Positions 1,569-6,659 of a stretch of 6,659 bases of DNA are shown piece after piece (the stretch's first letter is position 1; each line of letters begins with the position of its first letter). Origin of the DNA: a virus. Under the pieces are notes generated by a model that saw only the letters and a program-made list of their open reading frames with translations, was not told where the DNA came from and made no database searches. Both the position numbers and the translations under genes were made by a program. Location of the stretch: positions 1 through 6,659 of the IMG/VR virus record IMGVR_UViG_3300029584_000073. One strand, given 5' to 3'.

Positions 1569-1691
1569 GTTTGCGTTCTTATCCATTCTGTCTCTACTTA
1601 TCGCAAACATCAAAGCATATTTTTCCTTTTTTCTTTCGAGACGTGCAATAAAACAATGCGTAGGGAAAAATAGCGTTTGGCGTTCTGTAGT

Positions 1692-1731
1692 AAACTATGT
1701 TAAACAAAGCGTAGCGACTTTAACATAGTTT
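1692..1731 (+). repeat. 13-bp perfect inverted repeat AAACTATGTTAAA N14 TTTAACATAGTTT
   Basis: Hand-checked: 1692-1704 is the reverse complement of 1719-1731. The 14-nt loop CAAAGCGTAGCGAC contains a GCGTAGC motif. The arm CTATGTTAAAC matches 9/11 of the E. coli dif XerD arm TTATGTTAAAT. Confidence 0.85.
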
Positions 1732-1767
1732 GGTACAGGTTGATAAACGATATTTTTAACTACACTT

Positions 1768-1775
1768 TATCTTTG
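1768..1775 (+). promoter_or_regulatory. Second TATCTTTG (-7 type) box: candidate promoter P2 for rep and downstream genes
   Basis: This octamer is identical to the P1 -7 box and matches TAnnTTTG. It lies ~210 nt upstream of the VP4 ATG. No well-spaced TTTG -33 element is present: GTTG sits 25 nt upstream and TTTG 35 nt upstream. Confidence 0.4.
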
Positions 1776-1804
1776 CACATCTTGAGAGATAAAAGGAAAT
1801 TATG

Positions 1805-1960
1805 AAATCGTGAGCGCGGTAGCGCGAACACCTCTCTGTCATCTTGGATGACGCCTCTGTATGTATTGCGTAGCGTAGCGAAGCGCGTTAGGGATAGGAG
1901 CGAGTATTCGCGAAGCGAATTTGTTTGAGCGGATAGCCCGACCCCTTTAGGGGTAACGCC
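1805..1960 (+). other. GC-rich structured island (candidate complementary-strand origin and/or structured 5' leader of rep)
   Basis: By hand count, 1811-1960 is about 55% G+C in a visibly AT-rich genome. The island contains the hairpins GTCATC-TTG-GATGAC (1838-1852), ATTCGC-GAA-GCGAAT (1906-1920) and ACCCC-TTTA-GGGGT (1941-1954). It also contains CGCG-GTAG-CGCG (1815-1826), the direct repeat GGATAG (1892-1897, 1931-1936) and many AGCG/GCGNA units. Confidence 0.7.
1868..1887 (+). repeat. Tandem pentamers GCGTA-GCGTA-GCGAA-GCGCG, forming three overlapping GCGNAGC mini-hairpin motifs
   Basis: Read directly: GCGTAGC at 1868-1874, GCGTAGC at 1873-1879, GCGAAGC at 1878-1884. Confidence 0.85.
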
Positions 1961-1986
1961 CAAATTAAAATTAAAAATTAAAAACT
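1961..1986 (+). promoter_or_regulatory. A-rich, SD-less translation leader of rep with short tandem AAATTA/AAAATTA units
   Basis: The sequence caaattaaaattaaaaattaaaaact lies immediately before the ATG at 1987. No GGAGG-like motif precedes any gene in the window, consistent with Bacteroidota-style initiation. Confidence 0.5.
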
Positions 1987-3384
1987 ATGACAAATATTCT
2001 TTGTGAAAAACCAAAATATATTTTAAATCCTGCTTTTAAAGATGCACTTTTGCAAACTGGAAAATATGTTTATGACGGAAATGCAACTTTTGTACCGGAA
2101 ATGCAACTCGCTGCATGGCGTTGGAACTTTCCGTATGCCCTGTTTTCGCCGAAAAACATTGATTTTCAAAACCTTGTGTCATGGCAAGACAGTTTTTATG
2201 CCATTGACCGCGATAGTGACGCCGTACCGATGTTCCTTGCGATTCCATGTCGTAAATGTAGTCTTTGTCGAAAGAGGAACGCCCGTGATTGGATGTTTCG
2301 AGCTGTTGCAGAAACGCAGTCGTCCCGTTCTGTCCCCTATTTTATTACCCTTACTTACAACCCCATACATCGCCCCGTGGACGGTGTAGATAAAAAACAT
2401 GTACAAGATTTTCTTAAGCGTTTGCGTCAGATTCTTATTAGAGACCATAACTATGATGAGAAAATTCGGTATTTTGCCGCCGCTGAGTATGGTAGCCATA
2501 CGAAATTGCCTCATTATCATCTTATTTTGTGGAATATGCCTATTCATATGTCTGCTATGGATGTTTACCAGGTTGTCCATCAAGCTTGGTCTGAACGAAA
2601 ACGAATTTATAATAAACTTACTCATCGCTTTGATTGGGATTATGTAGGCGAACTTGGATTTGTCTATTGTAAACCTTGTACTCAAGGTGGTATTCAATAT
2701 TGTATGAAATATATGCGTAAAGAAAGTGATGTTCCTAAAGGTTGTAAACCAACCTTTTACTTATCCTCCCGCCGTGGCGGCGGTCTTGGTTATAAATGGT
2801 GTCTTGATCATGTTATGTGGTTCTATCAGAATCCTGATGTTTTGACTGTTGAAATTGTTGACAAGTTCACAGGTGAACGTTTTACTTCTTATATTCCTGC
2901 ATATTTTCGTCGAAAACTTTATCCGACTCCCTCTATGCTTATTCGAAAAGAAATACGTGATACTATTCAGCTTGCTGATTACTTTTTATCACTTCGCGCT
3001 TGTCTTTGGCAGATACATCTTCGTATGCCTGATAAGAAAGTTAATGTAACTCGTAAACATCTTCAGGAAAAGTATCCTTTCTACAATTTTGACACTTGTG
3101 TAGAACGTTTCCCTCGCTTTATTTTTGATAATGCGAAGAATTTTTATGCTATTCATCAGGAAGATAGTCTTATCGTTATGGAACATATTCTTGAACCCCT
3201 TATAGCTATGCTTGAGGCTTACGAATTTGATCTCGAGTATTACAAAATGATGACTTCTGCTAAGCGTGAACATCATGAGTTTATGAGTGAATATATGTCA
3301 ACACAACCTGAGATTGATATAACGTATGTTAAATATAAAACAGATAATGAGAATATTCTTGCTATTTATAAAGAAACTTTGTAA
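1987..3384 (+). CDS. VP4: Microviridae VP4 / gene-A-type HUH rolling-circle replication initiator (465 aa)
   Basis: Motif I is YFITLTY (nt 2338-2358). The HUH motif is LPHYHLILW, with HYH at nt 2512-2520. The two-tyrosine motif III is YCMKYMRKESD (Y238/Y242, nt 2698-2712), close to phiX174 A protein YVAKYVNK. An N-terminal PCRKCSLCRK cysteine cluster lies at nt 2245-2268. Confidence 0.93.
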   Translation: MTNILCEKPKYILNPAFKDALLQTGKYVYDGNATFVPEMQLAAWRWNFPYALFSPKNIDFQNLVSWQDSFYAIDRDSDAVPMFLAIPCRKCSLCRKRNARDWMFRAVAETQSSRSVPYFITLTYNPIHRPVDGVDKKHVQDFLKRLRQILIRDHNYDEKIRYFAAAEYGSHTKLPHYHLILWNMPIHMSAMDVYQVVHQAWSERKRIYNKLTHRFDWDYVGELGFVYCKPCTQGGIQYCMKYMRKESDVPKGCKPTFYLSSRRGGGLGYKWCLDHVMWFYQNPDVLTVEIVDKFTGERFTSYIPAYFRRKLYPTPSMLIRKEIRDTIQLADYFLSLRACLWQIHLRMPDKKVNVTRKHLQEKYPFYNFDTCVERFPRFIFDNAKNFYAIHQEDSLIVMEHILEPLIAMLEAYEFDLEYYKMMTSAKREHHEFMSEYMSTQPEIDITYVKYKTDNENILAIYKETL

Positions 3385-3998: not shown

Positions 3999-6272
3999 AT
4001 GGCAAATATATTTCGTAAAAAAGACGCATATATAGATCGTGTCAATCGGTCTACTTTTGACCTTTCTTTTGTGAATAACCTGACGATGAAGTTCGGCGCT
4101 ATCACTCCGGTGTGCCTGTTACCGGTTTCTTTTGGTGATTCATTTCAGATAAACGCCCGTTTCAATTTGCAATTGCTTCCGACCGTGTTCCCTATACAGA
4201 CACAGTTGTATGTGCGGTTGCATTTTGTTTATGTTCGCACTCGTACTCTTTGGGAAGATTGGATGTCGTTCTTTGGAGGTGATGAAACTGTAACTCCTCC
4301 TTGGATGGATGTTCTTGCTAACGGTAATACTCCTCAACGAAAACAACAGTTTAATTTACCTGATGACTTACAAACTGGTTCTCTTGCGGATTATCTCGGT
4401 GTGCCTACAACGATTACAGGCACTTATGGTTCTACTGTTAATGGAGTATTACACTCGCCTATATATACATCAGAAAAATCGTCTCCGAATTTTGGTCGAG
4501 GTTTTTATACAGCTTTAGCTACGCCAAATACTTCTGATGTATTTACTCTTAATGATTTGATTGCTAAAAAAGGGCTTGGACTTGGCGAACTTTTTGTATA
4601 TCAAAATGAGTCATTCATTGGTATTAATGATTATGGCTTTTCTAAAACCCTTATGGCTTTTGAATATAACTTTCAAAGTAACCAATCAACGCAGTCTCCT
4701 CAGGTTATACTTTCTTGTGCTGGATTTCCTGAATTAATTCAATATTTACAAACTTCTCGTTTGGGTTATATTTTTTCGGAAGATTCCTCTTTGGCTACTG
4801 AAATTGGCAAAATTGATTCTTCGGTTGTTTCTGGCACAGATATTATTTTAACTTTTAAGGCATCTAATGCTATTACTTCTTTTAAGTTCTATCTTGTTAT
4901 AGAGTTTGACGCTCATGACCGGAAACCTCATTCTGACGCTCTAACGTATACCTATATTGACTCGTCAAATTCTGTTTATCCTTATGGTTCAGGTATATAT
5001 GAATCTTTGCGTCAAAAATTCAATTCTATGAATGTTGCTGCTGTTATGTCTTCTAATGAATGGGTTAAACCCGAAGCTGCTAATTGTCCTTTCTATGCTA
5101 CTTCCGGTATGCCTTCTATTCCGCTGTCTGCACTTCCTTTTCGTGCGTATGAAGCTTATTATAATGCATTTGGCCGTGACATTCGTAATAATCCGTTTAT
5201 CGTGGACGGTAAACCGGAATACAATAAGTATGTCCCCTCTGTAAAAGGTGGACCTGATAGTTATAAATATCAATTACATTATGCTAATTGGGAACCTGAC
5301 GCTTATACTACGGCTTTACAGTCTCCACAAGCTGGTATTGCTCCTCTTGTAGGTATTACTTCTCTTGGTGAAGCTACATTCCGTGATGCTGCTGGTACTG
5401 AATACCATGCGCAGCTTGAAACTGCTGAAGACGGTGATACTGTTACTGGTTTTCAGGTTAAATCTTCTAATGCTCCTGCTGATGTTGTTCGGAATCTTAT
5501 AGGTATGGCTACTTCTGGTATATCTATTTCTGATTTCCGGAATGTTAACTCTTTGCAACGTTTCCTTGAAATTCGTATTCGTCAGTCTCCGCGTTATAAG
5601 AATCTTGTTAAGGGTCTCTTTGACGTTAATTTGGATTATGACGAACTCATGATGCCCGAATTCCTTGGTGGTATTTCTGATACTATACCTGTATATAAGG
5701 TAACTCAAACTACACCTACAGAGGGTAATCCTCTTGGTAGTTTTGCTGGTCAAGGTTCCTTGCAGTCCGGTATGCGTCATGTTATTCGTAAATATTGTCC
5801 GGAAGACGGTTATATTCTTGGTGTCATGTCGGTTGTACCTGCTGCGAACTATTCGCAGTTGTTGCCGCCTCATTTTACCCGTATGAACCTTTTGGATTGG
5901 CATTTTCCGCAATTCAATAACATTAGTTATCAGCCTATGCTGTATAAACATCTTTGTCCGTATCAGGCCTATGCTGTTAATCCTCAAAACGTTAATAATG
6001 TATTTGGTTATCAGCGTGCATATTGGGATTTAATTGCATCTTTTGATGAAGTCCATGGTGAATTCCGTGGTTCTATGAGAAATTTCCTTATTAACCGTGT
6101 TTTTGATAAAGCGCCTGAACTTTCTAAGGATTTTTTACTCGTTAATCCTGATCATGTCAATGATGTATTTGCTATGACTTCGGAGAATGGTGATAAGATT
6201 TTGGGTTCTGTTGCATTTGAAATAACTAAAAAGACAACTATACCTCGTAATTCTGTACCTCATATTGAATAA
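3999..6272 (+). CDS. VP1: Microviridae VP1 / F-type major capsid protein (757 aa, unusually long)
   Basis: Conserved microvirus capsid blocks are present: N-terminal FDLSF...GAITPV...LPVSFGDSF, LADYLGVP (D131 at nt 4389), SALPFRAYEAYYNAFGRD (S377 at nt 5127), MPEFLGG and FGYQRAYWD. It is the longest ORF and has strong T3 codon bias. Confidence 0.93.
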   Translation: MANIFRKKDAYIDRVNRSTFDLSFVNNLTMKFGAITPVCLLPVSFGDSFQINARFNLQLLPTVFPIQTQLYVRLHFVYVRTRTLWEDWMSFFGGDETVTPPWMDVLANGNTPQRKQQFNLPDDLQTGSLADYLGVPTTITGTYGSTVNGVLHSPIYTSEKSSPNFGRGFYTALATPNTSDVFTLNDLIAKKGLGLGELFVYQNESFIGINDYGFSKTLMAFEYNFQSNQSTQSPQVILSCAGFPELIQYLQTSRLGYIFSEDSSLATEIGKIDSSVVSGTDIILTFKASNAITSFKFYLVIEFDAHDRKPHSDALTYTYIDSSNSVYPYGSGIYESLRQKFNSMNVAAVMSSNEWVKPEAANCPFYATSGMPSIPLSALPFRAYEAYYNAFGRDIRNNPFIVDGKPEYNKYVPSVKGGPDSYKYQLHYANWEPDAYTTALQSPQAGIAPLVGITSLGEATFRDAAGTEYHAQLETAEDGDTVTGFQVKSSNAPADVVRNLIGMATSGISISDFRNVNSLQRFLEIRIRQSPRYKNLVKGLFDVNLDYDELMMPEFLGGISDTIPVYKVTQTTPTEGNPLGSFAGQGSLQSGMRHVIRKYCPEDGYILGVMSVVPAANYSQLLPPHFTRMNLLDWHFPQFNNISYQPMLYKHLCPYQAYAVNPQNVNNVFGYQRAYWDLIASFDEVHGEFRGSMRNFLINRVFDKAPELSKDFLLVNPDHVNDVFAMTSENGDKILGSVAFEITKKTTIPRNSVPHIE

Positions 6273-6274
6273 TT

Positions 6275-6586
6275 ATGAAACAAGTAGTAATTCACGCATG
6301 GAACACTCACACGTGTACATGTACTCGGAAACCGGGCGAACTTCCTGTACGTGGTGACCTTGCATATACTCCCGCTCAAATGTATGAAGCTGCCAAAGCT
6401 GGTGTACCTATTTCTTCTCAAAATATTTCGCAGCTGCCCTCTGATGATTTTATGGATGAAGAATCTTGGATTGTTCCCGTTGAATATCGTCGAGGTCAGG
6501 ATATTGCTGATATTTGGAATGCTCAACGTGATGCACGCGCTAAAATTGTAGCCGCCTACAATAAAAAGCGTAAGCAGTTACAATAA
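6275..6586 (+). CDS. Hypothetical protein, 103 aa, between VP1 and VP2; it spans the circular junction
   Basis: The ATG is 2 nt after the VP1 stop (TAATTATG, the same junction as upstream of VP1). Its stop overlaps the VP2 ATG (TAATG). The middle is acidic (SDDFMDEESW) and the C-terminus basic (AYNKKRKQLQ). A scaffolding or DNA-binding role is a guess from position only. Confidence 0.6.
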   Translation: MKQVVIHAWNTHTCTCTRKPGELPVRGDLAYTPAQMYEAAKAGVPISSQNISQLPSDDFMDEESWIVPVEYRRGQDIADIWNAQRDARAKIVAAYNKKRKQLQ

Positions 6587-6659
6587 TGCCAGGTTTTTTT
6601 GCAGGTGCTGGTGGTGCGCTAATTGGTGGCGCACTTTCCGGCATCTCTAATTTATTCGG
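6561..6659. repeat. Terminal direct repeat, copy 2 (identical to 1-99)
   Basis: See copy 1. Confidence 0.95.
6586..6659 (+). CDS. VP2: Redundant partial copy of the VP2 5' end (same bases as 26-99), an artefact of linearisation
   Basis: It lies entirely within terminal repeat copy 2 and its sequence is identical to 26-99. Confidence 0.9.
   Translation, partial: MPGFFAGAGGALIGGALSGISNLF

Follow-up and report, generated by a model that had tools for sequence, protein, structure and literature searches.

A conserved non-coding hairpin cassette with a Flavo-1-type element beside the Rep gene of a Bacteroidota microvirus: a candidate single-strand initiation region

Described single-strand origins and the cassette

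Microviruses are among the commonest phages of the human gut, and to our knowledge the start of the complementary strand is not known in those beyond the phiX174/G4 group. Initiation is dependent on RNA polymerase in M13 and in plasmid single-strand origins (sso), and on primase in G4. DNA mini-hairpins are documented in G4, St-1, and alpha3, at the complementary-strand origins that depend on primase, as well as in ssiA of RSF1010 and in the hairpin promoters of N4, and their DNA form is far more stable than their RNA form (PMC13037366). Hairpin I of the G4, St-1, and alpha3 origins carries GCGAAAGC or GCGTTAGC. In the reekeekee- and roodoodooviruses, conserved hairpins upstream of Rep show compensatory changes and an invariant loop and have been tentatively tied to negative-strand initiation (PMC9865509).

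The window, i.e., the whole stretch of DNA analysed here, is a 6,659-nt record whose positions 1-99 recur exactly at 6561-6659; the repeat is an assembly overlap, and the circle measures 6560 nt. A non-coding cassette (about 1606-1986, + strand) lies between the pilot-protein block and the gene for the replication initiator Rep (1987..3384, + strand; Pfam PF23343, E = 1.3e-17; PHROG 942, E = 5e-56). On the coding strand, presumed to be the packaged one, the cassette combines a 190-nt hairpin, two smaller hairpins (H2 and H3), a pentamer run, a microvirus-specific Flavo-1 subtype, and an A-rich leader. An A-rich spacer (1961..1986, + strand), reported by Tandem Repeats Finder as (AAATTAA)x3.4, runs to the Rep start codon. 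A coding role for the region was considered and rejected: the − strand ORF at 1760-1963 and the ORF at 1324-1728 have no family matches, and the latter is disrupted by an indel in relatives. The search for tRNA and tmRNA genes found none.

Like the G4-type origins, the cassette is an intergenic array of viral-strand hairpins in a microvirus, with GCG(N)NAGC tips (PMC13037366), but it has no sequence homology to them, no assignable CTG-type primase start, and a host from another phylum; one of its hairpins reaches 190 nt, and a repeat of host type makes up part of the array. It resembles the M13/f1 minus-strand origin, the plasmid sso, and F Frpo in having, on the strand that is packaged or transferred, a long imperfect hairpin with a stem that could rebuild a promoter. 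The −7-like box in the 3' arm is oriented so that RNA made on the folded strand would extend as the complementary strand. In contrast to these systems, the promoter assignment is weak and a correctly spaced −33 box is missing. The hairpins of the reekeekee- and roodoodooviruses are likewise conserved and intergenic, adjoin Rep, and carry compensatory substitutions (PMC9865509), but they come from another clade and another host, are far shorter at 13-64 nt, and include no host-repeat module.

The motif cluster and its hairpins

The initial annotation proposed that a dense cluster of GCGNAGC-type mini-hairpin motifs marks a complementary-strand origin. On re-scan, every motif coordinate it gave was correct. 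On the + strand, GCGTAGC lies at 1709-1715 in the apex loop of the 190-nt hairpin, GCGGTAGC at 1816-1823 inside H2, two GCGTAGC (1868-1874 and 1873-1879) and one GCGAAGC (1878-1884) in the pentamer run, another GCGAAGC at 1910-1916 at the P2 apex of the Flavo-1-type element, and GCGCAGC at 5409-5415, outside the cluster. GCGTAAGC occurs at 8-15 and again at 6568; the second position had been omitted, although it is the same site, because the window ends overlap. In total, the + strand has six GCG(N1-2)AGC sites within 1709-1916, where ~0.3 would be expected; the − strand of the whole genome has one GCGNAGC, at 4518. The enrichment is genuine and specific to the + strand. The observed counts also exceed those of every shuffle. 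Genome-wide, nine matches compare with a mean of 1.19 (sd 1.09) in 2000 dinucleotide-preserving shuffles that never reached nine; any 208-nt span of 2000 shuffled genomes held at most three; and in shuffles of 1690-1960 alone, matches averaged 0.30 and never exceeded three, against six observed. The GC-rich island in an AT-rich genome is likewise real, with 53% GC at 1800-1960 against 39% for the genome.

The 13-bp inverted repeat that had been described around the GCGTAGC loop is genuine, but it is merely the tip of an imperfect hairpin of 190 nt (1616..1805, + strand), with arms at 1622-1704 and 1719-1799 and an apex loop at 1705-1719. Two inverted repeats, I1 and I2, were detected in this hairpin, and it is also the sole other Rfam match, a weak hit to mir-1891 that we rejected. 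Its DNA minimum free energy is −41.4 kcal/mol on the + strand (z = −8.5), compared with −37.3 on the − strand. Across 20 relatives, five pairs changed on both sides, one-sided changes gave G·T, and 98.6% of cells remained paired; the four closest genomes differ by one substitution. Three genomes with capsids only about 23% identical (L023, L039, and L091) carry the whole cassette at 78% identity, there upstream of the pilot gene and not of Rep. Their long hairpin is also 78% identical but differs at the apex, where L091 has exchanged GCGTAGC for another GC-rich tip.

Hairpin H2 (1810..1829, + strand) consists of the pairs G1810-C1829 and T1811-A1828, tandem G·A mismatches, a GCGC/GCGC stem, and a GGTA loop. 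Two of its pairs covary, GCGC/GCGC becoming GCTC/GAGC and GCAC/GTGC, and G1810-C1829 becoming A-T, with GGTA or GGGA as the loop in relatives. Hairpin H3 (1838..1852, + strand; GTCATC-TTG-GATGAC) has a DNA fold with z = −5.1 and the compensatory variants GCCATC/GATGGC and GTCGTC/GACGAC. Over the cassette alignment, eight pairs change on both sides and one-sided changes again give G·T, a result unmatched by any shuffle or slid register. The cassette stems, in which G·T pairs are numerous, are kept by compensatory change and favour the + strand, and the long hairpin, H2, and H3 lie on the coding strand across the whole lineage. The region is ~99% identical between genomes whose genes are 81-94% identical. 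For the four sense-orientation lineages that were tested, folding stability along the genome, taken in 180-nt stretches, is highest directly upstream of the Flavo-1-type element (in the window itself, the stretch at this place is the third most stable). The long hairpin, H2, and H3 are almost invariant and make a reasonable, if still putative, single-strand initiation signal. The G·T pairs and the covariation agree equally well with single-stranded DNA and with a hairpin formed in the RNA of a + sense transcript.

The motifs themselves fared unevenly in relatives. Three motif sites are hairpin tips, and relatives keep them as GNA or GNNA caps while the stems covary; the three cassette hairpins concerned are closed by C·G with GNA or GNNA loops, and chromosomal Flavo-1 copies often have such a cap at their apex. 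Two relatives without a homologous cassette have 3-4 motifs on the + strand of the same pilot-Rep spacer, where they cap hairpins. The triple motif is different. It arises from the pentamer run GCGTA GCGTA GCGAA GCGCG (1868..1887, + strand), which yields three overlapping GCGNAGC at the 5' flank of the Flavo-1-type element. The three motifs at 1868-1884 are present as reported but cannot all fold simultaneously, and most relatives have not kept them. Most relatives with Rep 78-95% identical have GCGTAACGAAGTGAAGC at this site, and in most of them the run reads GCGTA ACGAA GTGAA GCGCG, so the period is kept and the GC closures are lost. With nearest-neighbour DNA parameters the run folds no better than shuffles (z = +0.55). 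In the Rfam model, the pentamer run aligns with an unpaired UAGC that is conserved on the 5' side of the Flavo-1 consensus stem.

A possible promoter lies within the long hairpin. TATCTTTG (1768..1775, + strand), in the 3' arm, matches the Bacteroidota −7 promoter motif TAnnTTTG perfectly. TAnnTTTG is at chance level genome-wide (8 observed vs 7.6 expected), and no −33 TTTG occurs at the usual 19-21 nt spacing from TATCTTTG, which we treat only as a lead to a promoter box. The sigma-70 promoter scan had no matches, as expected for Bacteroidota.

The Flavo-1-type element

Flavo-1, among the most abundant motifs in Rfam, has been an orphan "RNA motif" for 15 years. It was described by Weinberg et al. 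in 2010 (Rfam RF01705; PMC2864571), and the literature searched assigns it no function and holds no report of it in ssDNA phages. In the window, a three-helix Flavo-1-type element of ~76 nt occupies 1885..1960 (+ strand). Helix P1 pairs 1885-1890 with 1954-1959; P2 (1891-1939) contains conserved A·G and G·A mismatches and ends in the apex ATTCGC-GAA-GCGAAT (1906-1920), which holds the GCGAAGC at 1910-1916; and P3 (1942-1953) is CCCC-TTTA-GGGG. The DNA fold of the element alone is not exceptional (z = −1.0), and a search of 1600-1880 with filters off found no second, degenerate copy. With blastn, the element was found in otherwise unrelated microviruses. Across 30 viral copies P1, P2, and P3 covary, with an observed score reached by 0/500 shuffles; covarying columns include 19/86 (UA 20, AU 9) and 24/81 (CG 11, GC 7, UA 5).

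By direct comparison, the window copy stays below the Rfam gathering score of 42: 1873-1947 scores 18 bits (E = 0.13 in a 161-nt search), and the whole-window Rfam scan at E ≤ 1 does not list Flavo-1. L028 reaches 30-33 bits, also below the gathering score. In the model alignment, however, the window copy shows the conserved core of the family: GGGAUWG.AG and CGGAWAGCCCGA pair, with G·A mismatches inside the pairing. A loose pattern scan of viruses, with about half its matches due to chance, inside genes, was replaced by a covariance model. Model R1, built from viral copies only, found 111 copies in 100 bacterial loci at 30-86 bits. Several of them exceed the Rfam threshold at 50-65 bits, and the R1 matches in L186, L157, L133, L168, L201, L132, and L185 coincide with Rfam Flavo-1 matches of 54.6-65.3 bits. 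These coincidences provide a chain of sequence homology from the window element to accepted Flavo-1 members, and the 3' part of the cassette (about 76-90 nt) is a divergent, phage-adapted member of the family. It shares with RF01705 the pairing of the core GGGAUWGNAG...NAGCGGAWAGCCCGA, the conserved G·A mismatches, the unpaired UAGC on the 5' side, the range of Bacteroidota plus a few spirochaetes, and the passing of the Rfam threshold by bacterial copies found with the phage-built model. It differs in its score (18 bits vs 42), in the outer helix P1 and the 3' hairpin P3, which are not in the Rfam model, and in the middle of P2, which is replaced by GAGTAT...TGTYTGAG in microviruses only.

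The last difference defines a microvirus-specific Flavo-1 subtype: GAGTAT...TGTYTGAG in the middle of P2 occurs in 22 viral copies and in 0/128 bacterial copies, and the subtype is 80-92% identical between phages with proteins about 25% identical. GCGNAGC caps the P2 apex in 30/124 bacterial and 9/38 viral unique copies. The loops of the element are C-GNA-G, GNNA, or T-rich; GNRA accounts for 4/78 tetraloops and UNCG for none. Across microviruses the element is always on the T-rich strand, and in about half of the lineages that have it this is the strand opposite the genes. In every sense-orientation lineage it is followed by a ~20-30 nt A-rich stretch and then by ATG. The element is missing or incomplete in some relatives: it is deleted or truncated in the close relatives L253 and L261, which keep the upstream hairpins, and KX513875 and Dulem virus 258 have no Flavo-1-type element. 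Its loss in L253 resembles a microhomology deletion rather than precise excision.

Bacterial copies are multi-copy in Bacteroidota, stand in each of the four possible orientations to the genes beside them, and abut gene 3' ends, adjoining stop codons and not starts. Their replication-strand bias is not significant (60:48 and 63:45). Inverted pairs of the element bracket gene cassettes in L219 and L172, where the enclosed genes encode an HNH_2 protein, accompanied by small ORFs, and a HerA-like ATPase; no HUH tyrosine or REP-associated transposase was found between the pairs at these two loci. In a check for cultured dsDNA phages, the GenBank matches of the canonical element were limited to two records, both uncultured and about 7.2 kb long. 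Large, putatively viral IMG/VR contigs also hold the element, and we do not put it forward as a general phage element. A prophage attachment site was considered and rejected: in L067, 5.8 kb separate two weak copies, but the intervening genes are not microviral. In about 120 bacterial loci with Flavo-1, tblastn with 17 gene sets from microviruses found no microvirus genes. The packaged strand could not be read from base skew, which is not diagnostic because phiMH2K, a cultured phage, likewise shows an AT skew of +0.29, nor from substitution spectra, where singleton counts showed no usable deamination asymmetry.

Competing explanations and implications

We give even chances to an explanation in which the motifs of the cluster sit at the tips of hairpins that belong to a single cassette, non-coding, conserved, and portable, with a role in single-strand initiation and with an accessory Flavo-1 module attached. 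The long hairpin, H2, and H3 would act as folded viral-strand DNA that resists the coat of single-strand binding protein, letting the host start the complementary strand in either an RNA-polymerase-dependent (M13, sso) or a primase-dependent (G4) manner. In the double-stranded replicative form, the same stretch may serve as promoter and leader for the downstream gene. The Flavo-1 module would be a dispensable accessory, probably bound by the same host factor as the chromosomal copies. The original proposal of a complementary-strand origin is thus only partly supported: the long hairpin, H2, and H3 remain reasonable candidates, but the Flavo-1 part, being deleted or absent in relatives and antisense elsewhere, is a poor candidate for an essential origin. 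Taken literally, with the cluster of GCGNAGC and GCGNNAGC mini-hairpins as such, including 1868-1916, forming the origin for host primase or RNA polymerase, the proposal is quite unlikely. The strong + strand-only enrichment, the precedents of the G4, St-1, and alpha3 origins, ssiA, and the N4 promoters, the conservation of the motif at three sites, and its presence in non-homologous spacers all speak for it, as does the viral distribution of the element, which is found chiefly in ssDNA microviruses and invariably occupies the T-rich strand. Against it stand the loss of the triple motif in most relatives, the poor fold of the pentamer run, the deletion of the element with the 1910 motif in L253 and L261 and its absence from KX513875 and Dulem virus 258, its abundance in bacterial chromosomes, and its antisense orientation to genes in many microviruses.

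The hairpins and Flavo-1 could instead act as RNA, as a structured leader of ~200 nt that affects the stability or translation of the Rep mRNA and, in antisense lineages, as a 3'-end or antisense structure. We regard this as possible but unlikely. The ~25 nt A-rich spacer and start codon after the element in all sense-orientation lineages, the −7-like box upstream at 1768, the filing of Flavo-1 as RNA in Rfam, and the tolerance of G·T (G·U) pairs favour it; however, the caps are C-GNA-G, GNNA, or T-rich with few GNRA and no UNCG loops, and their RNA form is much less stable, antisense lineages would have just the complement of the element in their mRNA, and bacterial copies abut stop codons. 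In Flavobacterium psychrophilum, moreover, Flavo-1 matches are sense or antisense to transcripts and many are untranscribed (PMC9723704). A selfish or hitch-hiking host repeat of REP or MITE type, captured in the sole insertion-tolerant region and without a phage role, is a minority possibility for the Flavo-1 part. Like REP/BIME, Flavo-1 is multi-copy, intergenic, near gene 3' ends in either orientation (all four in bacteria, both in microviruses), and built of imperfect hairpins, and its sporadic occurrence among related microviruses, its natural deletions, and the inverted pairs in L219 and L172 agree with such an origin. Unlike REP/BIME, it is no simple palindrome but a structure of three helices in which unpaired purines are strongly conserved, and no tyrosine transposase was found between its inverted pairs at the two loci examined; the microvirus-only subtype, conserved between phages with dissimilar proteins, the compensatory change that maintains its structure within phage lineages, and the imprecise loss in L253 also argue against it. 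It is highly improbable that the long hairpin serves, in the manner of CTXphi, as an attachment site of folded single-stranded DNA in Xer-mediated lysogeny. Dif-like sites do flank the microvirus prophages of Bacteroidota, in some cases as two inverted sequences (PMC3091885), and 9/11 positions of the E. coli XerD arm are matched by CTATGTTAAAC in the stem, but ~1.5 such matches are expected by chance in the genome. The hairpin has no recognisable XerC arm or central region and, in contrast to CTXphi attP, lacks two inverted dif-like sites; the about 120 bacterial loci, with no microvirus genes beside their Flavo-1 copies, also speak against lysogeny.

Preferring the cassette with an accessory Flavo-1 module, we narrow the origin candidate in one Bacteroidota lineage to ~250 nt (1616-1852) and set apart from it a host-derived, potentially misleading module. 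Flavo-1 itself gains a new context, the microviruses, and may act as DNA, given its microvirus subtype, its DNA mini-hairpin caps in place of RNA tetraloops, and a strand that tracks base composition and not gene direction. A bolder proposal, which we consider a long shot, is that Flavo-1 elements are folded ssDNA signals, not RNAs, read by a Bacteroidota replication or priming factor, with the microvirus subtype placed in a single-strand origin and an A-rich-coding clade that is negative-sense. Since the element and its neighbouring hairpins are always on, and fold best on, the T-rich strand, this clade would package the strand antisense to its genes. If Flavo-1 does act as DNA, the family would have to be classified anew, and positive sense might not hold for all microviruses.

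The motif cluster and its genome

The cluster of GCG(N1-2)AGC mini-hairpin motifs is real, strand-specific and far beyond chance. A rescan of the window returned every motif where the initial annotation had placed it, with + strand sites at 8 (= 6568), 1709, 1816, 1868, 1873, 1878, 1910 and 5409, and a single − strand site at 4518. The claimed enrichment also held up at the whole-genome scale: dinucleotide-preserving shuffles gave 1.19 ± 1.09 matches per genome and never reached nine, and shuffled genomes placed at most three motifs within any 208 nt. When 1690-1960 was shuffled alone, 0.30 motifs were expected compared to six observed. The GC content is 53% in this island compared to 39% in the genome.

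The window is a complete microvirus genome, and its + strand holds every large ORF, including the genes for the pilot protein (26-1069, +), Rep (1987-3384, +; PF23343) and the 757-aa major capsid protein (3999-6272, +; Phage_F). Positions 1-99 exactly repeat 6561-6659, a 99-nt assembly overlap, so the true genome is a 6560-nt circle and GCGTAAGC at 8 and 6568 is one site. The nearest GenBank records are gut microviruses, namely SH-CHD12, Dulem virus 258 and the human-faeces capsid-gene fragment OP971957. The 134-aa ORF at 1324-1728 is probably not a gene; it carries a 1-nt indel near 1598 in relatives and enters the invariant left arm of a long hairpin. Part of 1450-1509 shares 87–88% identity with SH-CHD12 and Dulem virus 258. 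Two further hairpins, at 1510-1526 and 1552-1578, precede the cassette discussed below; one is GGAGCGC-CTT-GCGCTCC, and the terminator-like CGAAGTT-CCC-AACTTCG is followed by a T-rich tail.

Conserved hairpins and a Flavo-1-type element upstream of Rep

The 13-bp inverted repeat around the 1709 motif tops a much longer imperfect hairpin of 190 nt at 1616-1805, with a DNA minimum free energy of -41.4 kcal/mol (z = -8.5) and a weaker − strand fold (-37.3 kcal/mol). It is followed by H2 (1810-1829), with a GGTA loop and tandem G·A within the stem, and by the short hairpin H3 (1838-1852). Across 20 genomes with Rep 78–97% identical to that of the window, two-sided changes occur in eight pairs of these upstream hairpins, such as AAACTATG/CATAGTTT to AAATGATG/CATCATTT, GCGC/GCGC to GCTC/GAGC or GCAC/GTGC, and GTCATC/GATGAC to GCCATC/GATGGC. 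Where only one side has changed, the result is a G·T pair, and several G·T pairs are invariant. Among four genomes, 1610-1990 is ~99% identical, compared to 81–94% elsewhere. Directly after AAAGGAAATT at the long-hairpin base lies a three-codon mini-ORF, ATGAAATCGTGA (1802-1813), which most relatives keep and an extra T frameshifts in some.

A second structured element lies at 1885-1960. In a blastn search of 1450-1990 against GenBank phages, matches were confined to ~1885-1987, and the matched microviruses share no further nucleotide similarity with the window. Their aligned copies consist of conserved blocks split by two hairpins whose sequence varies and whose complementarity is kept. Further copies were drawn from IMG/VR, where the initial pattern was too loose and half its matches were chance. 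Thirty distinct viral copies gave a three-helix consensus, in which P1 (CGUK/MACG) encloses P2, a long helix whose A·G and G·A mismatches are conserved, and P3, a short hairpin. Two-sided changes occur in 5 of 14 pairs with 98% of cells paired, and neither shuffles nor slid registers of this alignment came near the observed covariation.

In Rfam, the element core matches Flavo-1 (RF01705) below the gathering score of 42, at 18 bits in the window and 30–33 bits in L028, a compared contig. When a covariance model trained on the viral copies alone was run on 100 loci from a bacterial-genome scan, it found 111 copies scoring up to 86 bits in Flavobacteriaceae, Bacteroidales, Sphingobacteriaceae, Chitinophagaceae, Saprospiraceae and a few Treponema. 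Because the viral-copy model recovers bacterial copies, several of which are themselves Rfam Flavo-1 hits (50–65 bits), 1885-1960 belongs, on the evidence of these models, to the Flavo-1 family, though as a divergent copy. Its membership supports a Bacteroidota host. A GAGTAT...TGTYTGAG subtype is present in both orientation classes of microviruses and in 0/128 bacterial copies.

Several motifs coincide with parts of this element and its flank. The P2 apex of the window, ATTCGC-GAA-GCGAAT, is the 1910 motif, and GCGNAGC, with N being any base, caps P2 in 30/124 bacterial and 9/38 viral unique copies against a background of ~0.15 per kb. In the P3 loop, C-GNA-G closure is frequent, and bacterial P3 tetraloops are GNRA in 4/78 and UNCG in 0/78. 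On the 5' side of the stem, the Rfam consensus carries an unpaired UAGC; the window's flank is expanded to GCGTA GCGTA GCGAA GCGCG (pentamer run 1868-1887), producing three motifs that overlap within 1868-1884. In most relatives (Rep 78–95% identical) the sequence is GCGTA ACGAA GTGAA GCGCG instead, retaining the period and losing the mini-hairpin closures, and the fold of the run is no better than that of shuffles. Three of the six motif sites are conserved hairpin caps, because the 1709 apex GCGTAGC is invariant in 23/23 genomes of this Rep lineage, the H2 loop is GGTA or GGGA throughout with covarying closing pairs, and the Flavo-1 GAA loop is mostly retained despite a stem change from TCGC/GCGA to CGGC/GCCG.

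Portability and orientation of the cassette

The whole cassette, comprising the long hairpin, H2, H3, the flank, the Flavo-1 module and an A-rich spacer, which in the window is an (AAATTAA)x3.4 tandem repeat at 1962-1984 ahead of the Rep start codon, recurs at 78% nucleotide identity in L023 (5731-6100), L039 and L091 (3066-3435), contigs whose capsids are only ~23% identical to that of the window. In these contigs the gene downstream of it is that of the pilot protein, not Rep, and the long-hairpin apex differs. The cassette appears to be exchanged as a module. P3 is missing from many genomes of the window lineage, L253 and L261 show near-total loss of the Flavo-1 element and L267 has a decayed copy, with the upstream hairpins retained in every case; judging from such genomes, the Flavo-1 module is dispensable within the cassette.

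SH-CHD12 and Dulem virus 258 have their genes in the same order as the window, with 78% nucleotide identity in the capsid gene, and neither has the long hairpin or a detectable Flavo-1 element. Their pilot-Rep spacers hold three to four + strand GCG(N1-2)AGC motifs, several tipping hairpins, which bears out the expectation that the motif rather than the exact sequence persists in relatives. These same spacers (L283 5908-6363; L284 3674-4134) also contain GC-rich hairpins, for example ATAGGC-GTA-GCCTAT, as well as GCGAAGTGAAACGGAGCGCGAGCGAAGCGAG, which is similar to the window's pentamer run.

Orientation of the element divides its carriers. It lies on the coding strand in the window lineage, L023/L091, L015 and L120, where it is followed by a ~25-nt A-rich spacer and a start codon. 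It is antisense and abuts the Rep stop codon in L010, L085, L064/69/84/105/111, L019/76/87, L079/94, mar49 and two other GenBank microviruses. The coding-strand AT skew is -0.05 to -0.13 (T-rich) in sense carriers and +0.28 to +0.35 (A-rich) in antisense carriers; since orientation tracks base composition without exception, the element is always on the T-rich strand, a pattern that includes L280 of the A-rich-coding, antisense group. Four sense-orientation lineages were tested, and in each the 180 nt directly upstream of the element form the most stable stretch of that length in the genome, except in the window itself, where they rank third. On the antisense side, the 140 nt preceding the element fold more stably on its own strand than on the coding one in 10/11 genomes, and windows elsewhere in those genomes show no such asymmetry. 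If every microvirus packages its coding strand, half of the carriers cannot be using the element as a virion-strand signal. The AT skew of the A-rich clade is shared by cultured phiMH2K, and substitution spectra were uninformative on the strand that this clade packages. The correlation of orientation with composition may mean no more than a split into two deep clades.

Bacterial Flavo-1 copies take each of the four possible arrangements with respect to the genes on either side, and they lie near stop codons rather than starts, often 0–30 nt from a convergent gene's stop, with no significant strand-composition bias. Paired copies surround gene cassettes on bacterial or viral contigs (L219 2333-3509; L172 307-2520; L149 5934-6370; L028 1254-4670). 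Two loci have inverted pairs that enclose, at a distance of a few nt, an HNH-type cassette (an HNH_2 gene set) and the gene of a HerA/DUF87-like ATPase, respectively, with no transposase inside. Tandem copies lie 330 nt apart at one paired locus, and direct copies 3.3 kb apart flank DUF4948 genes at another. One transcriptome paper reports Flavo-1 matches sense or antisense to transcripts, many being untranscribed (PMC9723704); the literature searched links Flavo-1 to no microvirus and assigns it no function.

A candidate single-strand initiation signal

The analysis shows the structures, how they are conserved and which family the element belongs to. Regarding function, the best-supported reading, and an inference, is that 1606-1986 serves as the main cis-acting cassette of the phage. 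The initial annotation had proposed 1709-1916 as a complementary-strand origin; the motif cluster stands as observed, and its interpretation as an origin is partly supported. The long hairpin, H2 and H3 form a plausible candidate for a single-strand initiation signal. They are + strand-specific and nearly invariant, their caps are of the kind known from the origin hairpins of G4, St-1 and alpha3, from ssiA and from the hairpin promoters of N4 (PMC13037366), and they resemble conserved pre-Rep hairpins reported in other microviruses (PMC9865509). Within the long hairpin, the 3' arm carries a putative -7-type box (1768-1775), a chance-level match. RNA begun there on the folded strand would be extended as the complementary strand, and in duplex form the box would drive the downstream gene. 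The Flavo-1 module would be an accessory, recruiting a host factor that recognises chromosomal copies. The rival readings are an RNA leader, a selfish repeat, a folded attP and a literal mini-hairpin origin.

The element is a microvirus-adapted Flavo-1 within a conserved hairpin cassette. What adds to its importance is its unexplained confinement to the T-rich strand, together with a hint that Flavo-1, an abundant "RNA motif", may act as DNA.
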